Shown one piece after another: positions 127 to 3,921 of a DNA stretch of 4,049 bases. Every line of letters begins with the position of its first letter. Position 1 is the stretch's first letter. The stretch is from a plasmid: assembly GCF_054482525.1 (NCBI RefSeq), contig NZ_JBTHVG010000005.1; one strand, given 5' to 3'. Under the pieces are notes generated by a model. That model did not search any database. It was not told where the DNA came from and saw nothing but the letters and a program-made list of their open reading frames with translations. The position numbers and the translations under genes are program-made.

Positions 127-474
127 CTAATCTGCCATAAGCCTGGATAACAGGGCACGGTGATACTCCGTAATAGCGATCAGCACCTCCGCATACTCCC
201 TGTCCCCGACACGCTTGCCGTCGATAAAGAGTTTTTTCTGTAACGCCCCCAGTCTCATAACTTCTTTCAGTACCCGATCATCAGTCAGTGAGTTAACTTT
301 CTTACCGAGAGCTGCCGCCCGTAAAAAACCGGAAACGGTCTTGCCGCATTCAGCAGCCCTTTTTCTGATTTCCTGGTCTTCTTCTGCCGTCAGACGAACA
401 GGGCGACTGATAGCCCGCCTGCGCGTATTACTTCCACTTCGTTTTGTCATAAAACATGGCTCCGTATCTGACAT
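127..474 (-). CDS. mobC: MobC-family plasmid mobilisation (relaxosome accessory) protein
   Basis: 115-aa ORF whose core (RLTAEEDQEIRKRAAECGKTVSGFLRAAALGKK...) resembles the MobC/MbeC family of small relaxosome proteins. It reads away from the adjacent bom/oriT-like sequence. An alternative start at M9 (ATG at 450) is preceded by GGAG at about 9 nt spacing and may be the true start. Confidence 0.8.
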   Translation of the reverse strand: MSDTEPCFMTKRSGSNTRRRAISRPVRLTAEEDQEIRKRAAECGKTVSGFLRAAALGKKVNSLTDDRVLKEVMRLGALQKKLFIDGKRVGDREYAEVLIAITEYHRALLSRLMAD

Positions 475-733: not shown

Positions 734-928
734 ATGAACAAGCAGCAGCAAGCCGTACTCAACATGGCGGGATTCATAAAAAGTCAGAGCCTGACGCTGC
801 TCGAAAAACTGGACGCACTCAATGCCGACGAACAGGCCGCCATGTGTGAGAAACTGCACGAACTCGCAGAAGAACTCCAGAACAGCATACAGACACGCTT
901 TGAAGCGGAAAATCTTACCGGGATATAA
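734..928 (+). CDS. rop: Rop/Rom (RNA one modulator) protein, copy-number control
   Basis: 64-aa ORF MNKQQQAVLNMAGFIKSQSLTLLEKLDALNADEQAAMCEKLHELAEELQ... closely parallels ColE1/pMB1 Rop (recalled as MTKQEKTALNMARFIRSQTLTLLEKLNELDADEQADICESLH...). A GGAG Shine-Dalgarno lies about 8-13 nt upstream of the ATG (acggagaaaacgaaaagATG). Confidence 0.9.
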   Translation: MNKQQQAVLNMAGFIKSQSLTLLEKLDALNADEQAAMCEKLHELAEELQNSIQTRFEAENLTGI

Positions 929-1544
929 CGCATCCGGACAGGATGCAGAACGGCATAGAGGAGCGTAAGGAGAAAATGTCACATAAGGCGCTCTTCCGCT
1001 TCCTCGCTCACTGACTCGCTACGCTCGGTCGTTCGACTGCGGCGAGCGGTGTCAGCTCACTCAAAGGCGGTAATACGGTTATCCACAGAATCGGGGGATA
1101 AAACCGGAAAGAACATGTGAGCAAAAGACAAAGACCCAGAAGAAGGGCGCGCGGGAGGCGTTTTTCCATAGGCTCCGCCCCCCTGACGAGCATCACAAAA
1201 ATCGACGCTCAAGTCAGAGGTGGCGAAACCCGACAGGACTTAAAGATACCAGGCGTTTCCCCCTGGAAGCTCCCTCGTGCGCTCTCCTGTTCCGACCCTG
1301 CCGCTTACCGGATACCTGTCCGCCTTTCTCCCTTCGGGAAGCGTGGCGCTTTCTCATAGCTCACGCTGTTGGTATCTCGGCCCGGTGTAGGTCGTTCGCT
1401 CCAAGCTGGACTGTATGCACGAACCCCCCGTTCAGTCCGACCGCTGCGCCTTATCCGGTAACTATCGACTTGAATCCAAACCGAGAAGACACGACTTATC
1501 GCCACTGGCAGCAGCCACTGGTAACCGAATTAGAGGAGTTAGCC

Positions 1545-1574
1545 TTGAAGTCATGCGCCTGTTAAGGCTAAACT
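1545..1574 (+). promoter_or_regulatory. RNA I promoter (-35 TTGAAG, -10-like TAAACT)
   Basis: TTGAAG at 1545-1550 and TAAACT at 1569-1574, placed as in the pMB1 RNA I promoter relative to the RNA I 5' end. Confidence 0.6.
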
Positions 1575-1580
1575 GAAAGA

Positions 1581-1685
1581 ACAAGTTTTGGTGACTGCGC
1601 TCCTCCAAGCCAGTTACCTCGGCTCAAAGAGTTGGTAGCTCTGAGAACCTTCGAAAAACCGCCCTGCAAGGCGGTTTTTTCGTTT
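1581..1685 (+). ncRNA. RNAI: RNA I antisense copy-number control RNA
   Basis: ACAAGTTTTGGTGACTGCGCTCCTCCAAGCCAGTTACCTCGGCTCAAAGAGTTGGTAGCTCTGAGAACC...GCGGTTTTTTCGTTT parallels ColE1-family RNA I (pMB1: ACAGTATTTGGTATCTGCGCTCTGCTGAAGCCAGTTACCTTCGG...). It ends in a GC hairpin plus T-run. Confidence 0.85.
1656..1685 (+). terminator. RNA I intrinsic terminator (hairpin plus T-run)
   Basis: aaaaaCCGCCctgcaaGGCGGttttttcgttt: GC-rich stem CCGCC/GGCGG followed by six T. Confidence 0.7.
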
Positions 1686-1695
1686 ACACAGCAAG

Positions 1696-1724
1696 AGATT
1701 ACGACGAGATAGAAAGGATCTCAA
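1696..1724 (-). promoter_or_regulatory. RNA II promoter (-35 TTGAGA, -10 TAATCT)
   Basis: Minus strand reads cTTGAGAtcctttctatctcgtcgTAATCTc with a 17-nt spacer, closely matching the pMB1 RNA II promoter. Confidence 0.7.
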
Positions 1725-1763
1725 GTTCTCATATCATAAAAACAAGCTGACACATCCACGATG

Positions 1764-1967
1764 TTATACCTTTTGAATCGCTACAGCTTTAAACCCTTTA
1801 TCTGTTTTTTCTAATTTAAACCTAACTAAAATACCTTTACATATATCGACATCATGCCCTAAAAACAAAAAATCATCATACCGAAAGAAAACATCACGTC
1901 CACGCTCACGCCTTATAAAGCCATACCCTTTAACATGGTCATAAAAATTAACAAATCCATTTTCCAT
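1764..1967 (-). CDS. Cold-shock-domain (CspA-like) small nucleic-acid-binding protein; candidate retron effector/accessory protein
   Basis: Core GFVNFYDHVKGYGFIRRERGRDVFFRYDDF aligns to the CspA fold (GxVKWFNxxKGFGFI...DVFVHF) with RNP1-like KGYGFI and RNP2-like VFFRY. The ATG at 1967 lies 4 nt after the RT stop (TGA 1972-1974) and is preceded by AGGTGA, indicating translational coupling. The longest ORF extends to an upstream ATG at 2021 (85 aa) overlapping the RT 3' end; the true start is uncertain. Confidence 0.8.
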   Translation of the reverse strand: MENGFVNFYDHVKGYGFIRRERGRDVFFRYDDFLFLGHDVDICKGILVRFKLEKTDKGFKAVAIQKV

Positions 1968-1971
1968 ATAA

Positions 1972-3111
1972 TCACCTATCTGGAAGTAATGCCACGAGCT
2001 TACGTCTATATAGTTTTGCAAGATTCTTATTAGTCCGCCCTACTATATCAAAATCATAGAGCATCCTATCTATTTTCCTAATCTGATCATCAGTTAAAGG
2101 CGGCGTAAACTTATTTAGATAGTGCTTAGCCATCAACTTTAATTTAGATATCTTGTAATCATCATAAACTGGCATTATCTCAGAAAGAATCGCCCTCAAT
2201 TCAACCGCCTGGACATGCCCAAGCCTCGACATTTGAGCAACCTTGCCAGAGCATCTATTCCATAAATCATGGTACTCTTTCGTATGACGTTCATAAGCAC
2301 CTTGTTTTTTACATATATAAACTAAGTACCTGATATAACGTCTATTTTCTTTTGTTAACTTAGGAACACCATGCTTTACCCACAACCCAGTGACACTAAG
2401 TTTAGAAGACGAATCTTTTGAGTGCTCTATCGTTGTCTTACTTTCATTTATTGAAAGTCTGTACTGATTCACCATTCCGTGAACGAGTTTTATTACTTTT
2501 GTTTTTTCCTCTGATGAAAGATCCTTATCAGAGGATATAGTAATATCATCTAAAAGCCTTGAATATGAAAGCCCCATAGACTTCAATCTATTATAGAGAT
2601 TATACTCACTATTAAAAAATAAAAGATTTGCAATATAACTAGAACAGCACCCACCCTGAGGGACCTTATTATTCAACGTCACAAGTTCCGTTAAGCATAA
2701 AGAAACATCAGGAGAAAAACGCATTAAATTTTTAAAAATAGAACAAACATCTTTTTTACTAATGCTGGGATAAAAATTGGTGATATCAAGACATATAACT
2801 GTTCTTTTCCTAGTATGAACAGCGGCATTAGATATATAATCGCGACCACTTAACGCCCCATGCAAATAATGAGGGTAATCAATTTTCTCAAAAATCTCTT
2901 TATTTATTTTTTTTTGAATTCCTTTCAAAGATCTCTTGGGTTCAAAAATTTGCCTTTCTTTTTTATTCTTCCCTGTTTCAACCTTAAACTGCTTGTACGA
3001 CATCGATACAGACTTGACTATCCAGTCCAATCTTTTTCTTTCTATGCCTAACATCGCAGATAAAGAATCCAAAGATGCAACAGGAGTTCCATTAAACCTG
3101 GGTTTATTCAT
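1972..3111 (-). CDS. Retron-type reverse transcriptase
   Basis: 379-aa ORF with RT motifs in order: NAxxH-like SNAAVH (res 95-99), motif A CLDITNFYPSI (catalytic D109), motif B VPQGGCCSSYIANLLF, motif C YSRLLDDITIS (D188, D189) and VTG (res 240-242). It aligns motif by motif with retron Ec86 RT as I recall it (IDLEDFFPSL / LPQGAPSSPKLANL / YTRYADDLTLS / RKVTGLVI). The ATG lies 7 nt after the a2 repeat. Confidence 0.9.
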   Translation of the reverse strand: MNKPRFNGTPVASLDSLSAMLGIERKRLDWIVKSVSMSYKQFKVETGKNKKERQIFEPKRSLKGIQKKINKEIFEKIDYPHYLHGALSGRDYISNAAVHTRKRTVICLDITNFYPSISKKDVCSIFKNLMRFSPDVSLCLTELVTLNNKVPQGGCCSSYIANLLFFNSEYNLYNRLKSMGLSYSRLLDDITISSDKDLSSEEKTKVIKLVHGMVNQYRLSINESKTTIEHSKDSSSKLSVTGLWVKHGVPKLTKENRRYIRYLVYICKKQGAYERHTKEYHDLWNRCSGKVAQMSRLGHVQAVELRAILSEIMPVYDDYKISKLKLMAKHYLNKFTPPLTDDQIRKIDRMLYDFDIVGRTNKNLAKLYRRKLVALLPDR

Positions 3112-3118
3112 GATGTTT

Positions 3119-3401
3119 GAGTTAAAAGTCGATTAGTTAAAAAGTTTCGATACGTAATCTATTACTTTAAACATAATCAAGCACATAGAAAACAAAAACT
3201 GTGTTTTTTTCAGTGCCTCCAGAGAGCCAACCTCTCTTTTTTTCTTCATCTGACCGTCTCCAGAACAAGATGAAGAGCTCTTGGTTACGTTAATGTTGAT
3301 GTTGATAATAAACATGATGCAACTCCTATTGGTTATGAAATTTTGCCAGACCAGTAGGAAAGCAAGGAAAAACTCTATTGGCTCTTTGGGACTTTTAACT
3401 C
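3119..3401 (-). ncRNA. Candidate retron msr/msd non-coding RNA bounded by a1/a2 inverted repeats
   Basis: Perfect 12-bp inverted repeat: plus-strand gagttaaaagtc at 3119-3130 and gacttttaactc at 3390-3401. On the minus strand this gives 5'-GAGTTAAAAGTC (a1) ... about 260 nt ... GACTTTTAACTC (a2), then 7 nt, then the RT ATG. Internal hairpins include CTTCATCT-n16-AGATGAAG, AGAGAG-gttgg-CTCTCT and AAAAAC-aca-GTTTTT. Exact msr/msd boundaries and the priming G are not determined. Confidence 0.6.
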
Positions 3402-3684
3402 ACATTGCCAGACAATCGTCGCTATTCTTTTAGTGCTGATACACGCTCAGGGGCGTTCTCACCATTAATTAGCGGCCAGGCCGGTCATGATCTCATGCGA
3501 GATCGCCTTAAAAACAAGGCATCGGTTTCCTTGCGCAACATACACGTAACCATTTGTTAAAGAGCGAGAGCCAGGCGTGGTTCGCCCGCTTCGCTGATTA
3601 TTATAAAGTTTTTTATCTTTCTGTCACCAACAAGAAAGCGCCTTATCCTGCCAGCGATAGGCTAAAAGGTATGCAGCATGAGAT

Positions 3685-3921
3685 TCAAATCAACTCAGCT
3701 ACAAAGGCCATAACAACAATCCCAACCTCAGCATCGGCACTCAGGATAATTTTTGAACTAGCATCTCTTAAATTCTGACCGTCAAAGGTTGCTACTTTTT
3801 TTAAAGAGGCATCCCTTAAAACCTTGCCATCAAAAGTCGCTATTTTTCTCGAAAAGGCATCTCTTAAGGTTTTACCGTCAAACCGAGCAACGGTTTTTAA
3901 GTCATTGTTTTTATTGAAATA
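3685..3921 (-). pseudogene. Open frame encoding 16-aa tandem protein repeats with a hydrophobic C-terminus; no canonical start codon, so a possible decayed gene or non-canonical initiation
   Basis: Minus-strand frame from the TAA at 3922-3924 to the TGA at 3685-3687 translates to YFNKNNDLKTVARFDGKTLRDAFSRKIATFDGKVLRDASLKKVATFDGQNLRDASSKIILSADAEVGIVVMAFVAELI*. Differences between repeat copies are largely synonymous third-position changes (GCT/GCG/GCA, GAC/GAT, GGT/GGC, AGA/AGG, AAA/AAG). No ATG, GTG or TTG precedes the repeats; the nearest ATG (3903-3905) is offset by 1 nt and gives M-T-stop. Confidence 0.3.
3761..3904. repeat. Three tandem, diverged 48-bp direct repeats
   Basis: Units at 3761-3808, 3809-3856 and 3857-3904 each begin GCATC(T/C)CTTAA and share an (A/G)CC(G/A)TCAAA block and a T-run; identity is roughly 65-75%. 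Confidence 0.85.

Follow-up and report, generated by a model that had tools for sequence, protein, structure and literature searches.

A p15A-type RNA I control region beside a pMB1/ColE1-type primer and origin in a small natural retron plasmid

To which replicon type does the origin of this small plasmid belong, and is it all of one kind? The stretch of DNA analysed here, which we call the window, is 4,049 nucleotides long. A sequence-only reading had proposed that the RNA I/RNA II control region is p15A-like, that rop and the origin-proximal segment are of pMB1/ColE1 type, and that the whole is a mosaic replicon with p15A-type incompatibility and Rop-modulated copy control. The strings quoted in its favour are present in the window, the RNA I string at 1527-1622 and ggtaatacggttatccacagaatc at 1069-1092. 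The interval it singled out, 1545-1724, is the exact span between the -35 hexamers of the RNA I promoter (TTGAAG) and of the RNA II promoter (TTGAGA, minus strand).

The plasmid and its replication region

The window is a complete small circular plasmid. Plasmid p8GC-4kb (NZ_JBTHUQ010000006.1) of E. coli strain 8GC, which comes from mink in China, matches it at 100% in circularly permuted form and on the reverse strand. About twelve further plasmids of ~4.05 kb from E. coli, Salmonella and Shigella are 98-99% identical over their full length, among them pMB9635_5 (98.6% identity to the window) and pUWI-PP98.2. The other plasmid record inspected in the strain 8GC assembly is a 107-kb RepA plasmid. 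The features of the window are given below, each with the basis of its assignment where there is one to name.

127-474, minus strand: NikA-like mobilisation protein (family assignment)
734-928, plus strand: rop, encoding a Rop/Rom family protein of 64 aa (PF01815, PDB 1rop)
about 963-1727: ColE1-type origin (homology)
963-1521, minus strand: RNA II primer body and origin-proximal DNA of pMB1/ColE1 type (identity over 994-1521, ColE1 homology from 963)
1157-1172, minus strand: origin motif GGCGTTTTTCCATAGG (position by homology to ColE1/pMB1)
1161-1688, minus strand: RNA II pre-primer, about 525 nt (inferred from promoter and origin positions by homology)
1502-1524: conserved 23-bp block CCACTGGCAGCAGCCACTGGTAA, nearly invariant in all 16 of the 16 origins aligned
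1522-1700: p15A-type copy-control module, comprising the RNA I promoter and gene, the initial ~167 nt of RNA II, and the -10 hexamer of the RNA II promoter
1545-1574, plus strand: RNA I promoter, TTGAAG at 1545-1550, 18 nt spacer, TAAACT at 1569-1574 (positional homology to ColE1/p15A)
1581-1688, plus strand: RNA I, antisense repressor with three stem-loops and a rho-independent terminator (Rfam; ends by homology)
1724-1696, minus strand: RNA II promoter, TTGAGA at 1724-1719, 17 nt spacer, TAATCT at 1701-1696 (homology)
1764-2021, minus strand: cold-shock-domain (CSD) effector of the retron (family assignment; 'retron Se72 family effector protein' in RefSeq)
1972-3111, minus strand: retron reverse transcriptase (family assignment)

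The origin motif GGCGTTTTTCCATAGG is invariant across the aligned pMB1, ColE1 and p15A sequences, and we take it to be the conserved site of RNase H processing and of the RNA-to-DNA switch in ColE1. The hexamers of the RNA II promoter are likewise the same in all three references, and the spacer between them is lineage-specific. A generic sigma-70 and terminator scan of 1480-1780 did not pick up the promoter of RNA I, that of RNA II or the terminator of RNA I; its sole match, 1710-1737 on the plus strand, fits no known element. As the scanner missed both promoters, their assignment is by homology only.

Among the open reading frames with a family assignment (NikA-like protein, Rop, reverse transcriptase and CSD protein) there is no Rep initiator, and the RefSeq gene list for the identical p8GC-4kb holds the same four genes only. 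The plasmid is of the Retron-Sen1 (Se72) kind; in Mestre et al. 2020 (PMC7736814) this retron is entered as the one of type V, partnered by a CSD protein. This family has been known since 2001, going by the 4,053-bp retron plasmid of S. Enteritidis that PMC5841774 credits to Rychlik et al. 2001 (J Bacteriol 183:2852). Altogether the plasmid is made up of at least four modules, namely a nikA-oriT-rop backbone, the pMB1/ColE1-type primer and origin, the p15A-type control module and the retron cargo.

Segment identities and the breakpoint

The p15A and pMB1 reference origins were checked against deposited records. The p15A origin is found at 100% over 706 nt in the BL21(RP), BL21-RIPL and Rosetta2(DE3) assemblies, and in Rosetta2(DE3) its neighbours are cat and genes for rare-codon tRNAs; this is the backbone of pRARE2, which derives from pACYC. 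The pMB1 origin agrees at 99.9-100% with pUC57-type plasmids. References for ColE1 (NC_001371) and CloDF13 (NC_002119) were taken directly from the database. Identities were counted per segment on a MAFFT alignment of the window with p15A, pMB1 and ColE1:

Control region 1522-1700 against p15A: 169/179 = 94.4%, 0 gap columns
Control region 1522-1700 against pMB1: 69.1%, 28 gap columns
Control region 1522-1700 against ColE1: 69.7%, 30 gap columns
Primer and origin segment 994-1521 against pMB1: 94.1%
Primer and origin segment 994-1521 against ColE1: 92.6%
Primer and origin segment 994-1521 against p15A: 78.6%, 44 gap columns

Both parts of the original claim are borne out by these counts: the control region is nearer to p15A than to pMB1, and aligns to the former without a gap, and the origin-proximal segment is pMB1/ColE1-like. 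Against p15A the window shows local lows of 51% at 1077-1165 and of 63% at 1301-1400, and it aligns with ColE1 DNA from 963 onwards. Opposite window position 1545, pMB1 and ColE1 have 25-28 additional nucleotides, which are absent from the window and from p15A. Because of this indel, the RNA II of the window is ~27 nt shorter than the 555-nt RNA II of ColE1. The transcript is itself composite, with a 5' part (~167 nt) of p15A type and a 3' part of pMB1/ColE1 type.

The position of the change was located on 148 informative sites, those where the window agrees with either p15A or pMB1 but not with both. To the left of the breakpoint, 86 sites are pMB1-type and 9 p15A-type; to its right 49 are p15A-type and 4 pMB1-type. 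The maximum chi-square of 98.3 places the breakpoint at 1529-1534 and was reached in none of 10,000 permutations. Relative to the classical references p15A, pMB1 and ColE1 the origin is a mosaic, as proposed. The breakpoint lies immediately to the right of the 23-bp block CCACTGGCAGCAGCCACTGGTAA, which is likely the crossover site for homologous recombination.

A wider view was obtained from a panel of 16 origins, including ten more natural plasmids that span the range of control-region similarity, again compared per segment. In the left segment, the window falls into a ColE1/pMB1 clade (92-99% mutual identity) together with pUWI-PP98.2, pMB9635_5, E. albertii pEA35_4, a Shigella 2.69-kb plasmid, pMB1 and ColE1. 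The p15A clade of this segment (83-96% mutual identity) comprises p15A, pFAM21845_4, three Klebsiella plasmids, a qnrB19 plasmid and pLAO30. Identity between the two clades is 77-81%, and that of the window to the p15A clade 77-80%. In the right segment, the group of the window lies within the p15A-type clade (88.7-100%) and has ~69% identity to pMB1/ColE1. Such an incongruence between left and right segment is the pattern expected from recombination.

The same data can be read without any recombination in the lineage of the window. Window and p15A would then have kept the ancestral control region, the ColE1/pMB1 branch would have changed fast or gained a foreign module, and the 'mosaic' would be an artefact of taking ColE1/pMB1 as reference. 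In the left segment, the group of the window does stand apart from pMB1 and ColE1 (94.1% to the first and 92.6% to the second, which share 95.1% with each other). Selection for compatibility diversifies RNA I regions, and the window's nearest left-segment relatives differ from it in loop III. CloDF13, too, is slightly nearer to the p15A-type control region (65.7-68.9%) than to the pMB1-type one (60%). However, this reading needs opposite rate ratios on different branches: window and p15A differ by 21% on the left and 6% on the right, window and pMB1 by 6% on the left and by 31% plus the indel of 25-28 nt on the right. The boundary, moreover, is sharp and lies beside a conserved block, and plasmid pST90-3 is a clear crossover of the same two clades elsewhere. 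We therefore regard a history without recombination as improbable.

In plasmid pST90-3, the origin resembles that of ColE1 as far as about window position 1265 and that of p15A past this point; the Rop of pST90-3 is identical to that of ColE1. Since its crossover is at another point, exchange between both clades inside the origin has occurred at least twice. The reading we prefer is that the origin of the window is, with high probability, a recombinant of two deep ColE1-family clades, and that it works as a natural RNA II-primed, RNA I-controlled replicon without Rep.

The mosaic is somewhat patchy. At 1410, 1415 and 1436 the window has p15A-like bases, where pEA35_4 and the Shigella 2.69-kb plasmid have pMB1-type ones, and at 1468-1485 it carries lineage-specific changes. 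Both observations point to a history of more than one event and not to a single clean exchange.

Modular evolution of ColE1-like plasmids is well documented, and an exchange between p15A and pMB1 types within the origin is an unsurprising variation of it. Ares-Arroyo et al. 2021 (PMC8683028) treat recombination at oriT/cer and co-integrates, not exchange within the origin, and in the literature searched we found no explicit account of a p15A/pMB1 mosaic inside a natural origin.

RNA I, Rop and the predicted incompatibility

The Rfam model RF00106 (RNAI) matches 1583-1683 on the plus strand with 94.6 bits (gathering score 47, E = 1.3e-17). Homology to the ColE1 and p15A transcripts puts the first base of RNA I at A1581 and its 3' end near 1686-1688. 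Folding predicts the three canonical hairpins, with a minimum free energy of -39.5 kcal/mol and z = -3.9. Only three positions separate the transcript from that of p15A: 1623 (C instead of U) and 1642 (U instead of A), which belong to stem II, and 1686, which lies in the 3' tail; loops I-III and the 9-nt single-stranded 5' tail are identical. With RNA I of pMB1/ColE1 it shares 68.5% identity; hairpins I and III differ, and loop II (UUGGUAG) alone is common to both. The two stem-II substitutions alter the predicted geometry of stem II and, going by this model, could shift the binding kinetics.

Replication would follow the standard ColE1 mechanism, as summarised in PMC8683028 and PMC3478263; from homology to that system we infer promoter use, the primer processing site and the effect of Rop. 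RNA II would be transcribed leftward from the promoter at 1724-1696, form a persistent hybrid at the origin and be processed near 1161-1165 to give the leading-strand primer. RNA I would bind the 5' end of nascent RNA II by loop-loop 'kissing' contacts and so block maturation of the primer. Rop would presumably stabilise the kissing complex and thereby lower the copy number. Because the exchanged block comprises RNA I with its promoter as well as the whole of its target, the repressor still fits the RNA on which it acts, and the chimera is viable.

The rop gene is present and looks functional, as had been claimed. Its product matches Pfam PF01815 (E = 2e-30) over model positions 1-57 of 57, and PDB 1rop with E = 2.6e-16. 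In the alignment with the PDB Rop, residues K3, N10, F14, Q18 and K25 are kept; these reportedly make up the RNA-binding face of the protein (Predki et al. 1995).

As a sign of pMB1/ColE1 ancestry, the role in which it had also been cited, rop does not hold up. Global alignment of the window's Rop with that of ColE1 gives 52% identity and local alignment 57%; the protein is equally far (52% global) from the Rop of pFAM21845_4, a plasmid with a p15A-type origin that is 100% identical to p15A in the control region and 95.7% in the left segment. With blastn, the rop DNA of the window gives no alignment to ColE1. Moreover, rop occurs in 7 of the 10 natural plasmids sampled that have a p15A-type control region, and in 59% of Enterobacterales ColE1 plasmids (Ares-Arroyo et al. 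2021, PMC8683028). Taken together, these findings mean that rop is no marker of ColE1/pMB1 descent. The Rop proteins of pEA35_4, the S. sonnei 2690-bp plasmid and pMB9635_5 are 88-95% identical to that of the window. Judged by these similarities, rop belongs to the nikA-oriT-rop backbone module (1 to about 960) and not to the ColE1/pMB1 lineage.

In the ColE1 family, incompatibility is conferred by RNA I (PMC3478263). ColE1/pMB1 and p15A form separate incompatibility groups, with the RNA I loops as a key determinant of compatibility (bioRxiv 10.1101/2021.11.25.470029). Since the window shares its loops and 5' tail with p15A, a p15A-type specificity is predicted for the window: the plasmid would probably cross-react with p15A/pACYC replicons and be compatible with pMB1/ColE1 replicons. 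As a whole-origin p15A replicon the window does not qualify, with 994-1521 lying outside the p15A clade, and a pMB1/ColE1 specificity is not indicated either, its RNA I loops not being identical to those of pMB1/ColE1. By every feature examined the window is a member of the ColE1 family, and by its RNA I one of predicted p15A-type specificity.

Could the p15A-like control region nevertheless be functionally distinct, such that the plasmid is compatible with p15A through the stem-II changes, the RNA II context, Rop dosage or copy number? The altered stem-II geometry would fit this possibility, as would the pMB1-type sequence of RNA II beyond nucleotide ~167, and a directed-evolution study cautions that compatibility cannot be fully predicted from the sequence of the loops alone (bioRxiv 10.1101/2021.11.25.470029). 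Against it, the very elements that start the pairing of RNA I with RNA II, loops I-III and the 5' tail, are those without a difference from p15A, and RNA I of the window would face only 2 mismatches in 106 nt on p15A RNA II. We consider a distinct specificity unlikely, and p15A-type specificity remains our prediction.

Distribution and comparison with known plasmids

The mosaic origin is widespread. A query spanning the junction (1290-1700) finds single-piece matches at >=90.8% in at least 60 PLSDB plasmid records, which come from Escherichia, Shigella, Salmonella and Klebsiella. A count of 1160 records at 80% coverage was discarded as a number of mosaics, as it is non-discriminating: separate BLAST pieces in one record are merged into one place. 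The p15A-type control region per se occurs in more than 1,000 PLSDB records and in 588 of 5,426 complete E. coli genomes.

Mis-assembly, or contamination by a chimeric laboratory vector, might also create such a mosaic. Both parental-type origins are common in laboratory vectors, and vector-derived origins do occur in public E. coli assemblies. However, the window has diverged by 5-6% from each vector origin in the respective segment, the same junction recurs across the four genera in dozens of independent records, which represent many countries and many hosts, and the plasmid family was described in 2001, according to the attribution of the 4,053-bp S. Enteritidis plasmid in PMC5841774. Divergence from the vectors and recurrence of the junction effectively refute an artefact, to which we assign a negligible probability.

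Uniform similarity to a single known replicon, which the sequence-only reading had held to speak against a mosaic, is thus seen or not seen depending on the replicon chosen. With p15A, pMB1 and ColE1 it is absent. With existing natural plasmids it is found, since the whole origin of the window is 95-100% similar to theirs throughout (100% in p8GC-4kb). The mosaic is a real but ordinary product of recombination, present in many wild plasmids of the ColE1 family, and it marks an old and widespread lineage rather than a new construct.

These observations also bear on replicon typing. MOB-suite places pMB9635_5 in rep_cluster_2350 together with ColE1, and pUWI-PP98.2 in cluster 2370. As pMB9635_5 clusters with ColE1 and yet has a p15A-type RNA I, cluster-based typing does not track RNA I specificity; on this property, whole-origin similarity and cluster typing are silent. 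In practice, the prediction for wild Se72-type retron plasmids of this lineage is incompatibility with pACYC/p15A vectors and coexistence with pBR322, pUC and pET vectors, which is relevant to their cloning or to their study in native hosts.

More tentatively, small ColE1-type plasmids may repeatedly, and under selection, change their incompatibility specificity by swapping the ~180-bp control module at CCACTGGCAGCAGCCACTGGTAA, an idea that we put forward as possible though rather doubtful. If it were true, a retron defence plasmid could coexist with colicin or resistance plasmids of ColE1/pMB1 type, and replicon typing based on similarity would mispredict compatibility. The locus is in any case a clean natural example of modular exchange in a ColE1-type origin, and the understanding of how the replicon works is unchanged by it.

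Among known systems, the small Retron-Sen1 (Se72) plasmids (p8GC-4kb, pMB9635_5, pUWI-PP98.2 and the 4,053-bp S. Enteritidis plasmid) show no substantial difference from the window. They vary among themselves mainly in a hypervariable stretch at 1100-1160, which adjoins the origin.

Next come E. albertii pEA35_4 (2.57 kb) and the 2.69-kb plasmid of Shigella sonnei/flexneri. They have a nikA-oriT-rop backbone like that of the window, with 94-97% identity over 1-1000, and their origin is pMB1-type on the left and p15A-type on the right, as in the window. Their cargo is another one, without a retron, and loop III of RNA I is two bases apart (CCUGCAAGG against CUUGCAGGG). Given this difference in the loop, the two plasmids probably have a specificity unlike that of the window.

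The classical replicons each resemble the window in one part. In p15A (pACYC177/184 and pRARE-type plasmids), the control region is near-identical to that of the window and lacks the same 25-28 nt, whereas primer body and origin differ; the pACYC-type reference stretch is also without rop, which the window has. In pMB1 (pBR322/pUC) and ColE1, the primer body and origin, the origin motif, the RNA II promoter hexamers, the Rop family and the mechanism are as in the window, whereas the control region with RNA I loops I and III is different.

Retron operon and its distance to the primer promoter

Positions 1764-3402 (- strand) of the window represent a complete type V retron, which resembles Retron-Sen1/Se72 and contains the following elements.

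Features of the retron
3118-3130 and 3390-3402, perfect 13-nt inverted repeat
1972-3111, - strand, reverse transcriptase (RT) ORF of 379 aa, RVT_1 domain with E = 1.8e-15
1764-2021, - strand, cold-shock-domain (CSD) effector ORF, CSD with E = 9.5e-8

The inverted repeat is located directly upstream of the RT start, and its two halves look like the a1 and a2 arms around msr-msd, for which they are our candidates. In an Rfam search of the window, no retron ncRNA was matched at E < 1. The longest RT and CSD effector ORFs overlap by 50 nt (1972-2021). The start codons of both genes are uncertain, since RefSeq annotates shorter versions than these longest ORFs: the annotated effector comprises 204 nt, while the annotated RT comprises 1032 nt in p8GC-4kb versus 1140 nt in pMB9635_5.

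The operon, in the order RT-CSD, shares its strand with RNA II and is transcribed towards it. The operon's stop codon at 1764 is separated from the downstream RNA II -35 hexamer by a mere 40 nt or so, and no terminator-like hairpin was seen in between (window 1728-1763). Read-through from the retron could pass into primer transcription and link retron expression to the copy number. This same -35 hexamer marks the exact end of homology to other ColE1-type origins.

Variation within the origin and candidate backbone elements

Adjoining the origin on the DNA-synthesis side, positions 1100-1160 are hypervariable even between plasmids that are otherwise 98-99% identical. Approximately 15 differences between pMB9635_5 and the window fall within this stretch, and almost none elsewhere in the origin. 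This concentration points to gene conversion acting locally or to a relaxation of constraint.

An imperfect 20-nt inverted repeat (502-543; GCAATTGTAATAGCGTGCAT / ATGCGCGGTATAACAATTGC, 85% complementary, gap of 2 nt) is situated between the nikA-like gene and rop. We consider it a candidate oriT or NikA-binding site. A relaxase gene is absent from the whole window. In addition, an imperfect tandem repeat was found at 3761-3882 (48-nt unit, 2.5 copies, 72% matches), a region whose sole annotation in relatives is a hypothetical protein. Rychlik et al. reportedly described, in 2001, an ORF of unknown function that is required for retron DNA synthesis.

p15A-type sequences in other records

The RefSeq 'chromosome' of Rosetta2-DE3 (NZ_CP083274.1) includes pACYC-derived pRARE2 DNA at 1055-3500 of its comparison sequence (L003), with cat, the p15A origin and rare tRNA genes. 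Either mis-assembly or integration accounts for this vector DNA within a chromosome record. The chromosome records of BL21(RP) and BL21-RIPL match the p15A origin, too; the flanking genes were examined for Rosetta2 only.

The K. pneumoniae plasmid L009 (NZ_CP138753.1), a ColE1-type plasmid of 3.5 kb, has a p15A-type control region and carries two different rop genes (2162-2353 and 2824-3015), whose proteins are 76% identical. In the S. Typhimurium plasmid pST90-3 (NZ_CP050737.1), the origin is ColE1-like up to the homologue of window position ~1265 and p15A-like from there on. Its Rop is identical to ColE1 Rop and its mob genes are of the ColE1 type. The pST90-3 origin is a mosaic that has arisen independently of the one in the window.
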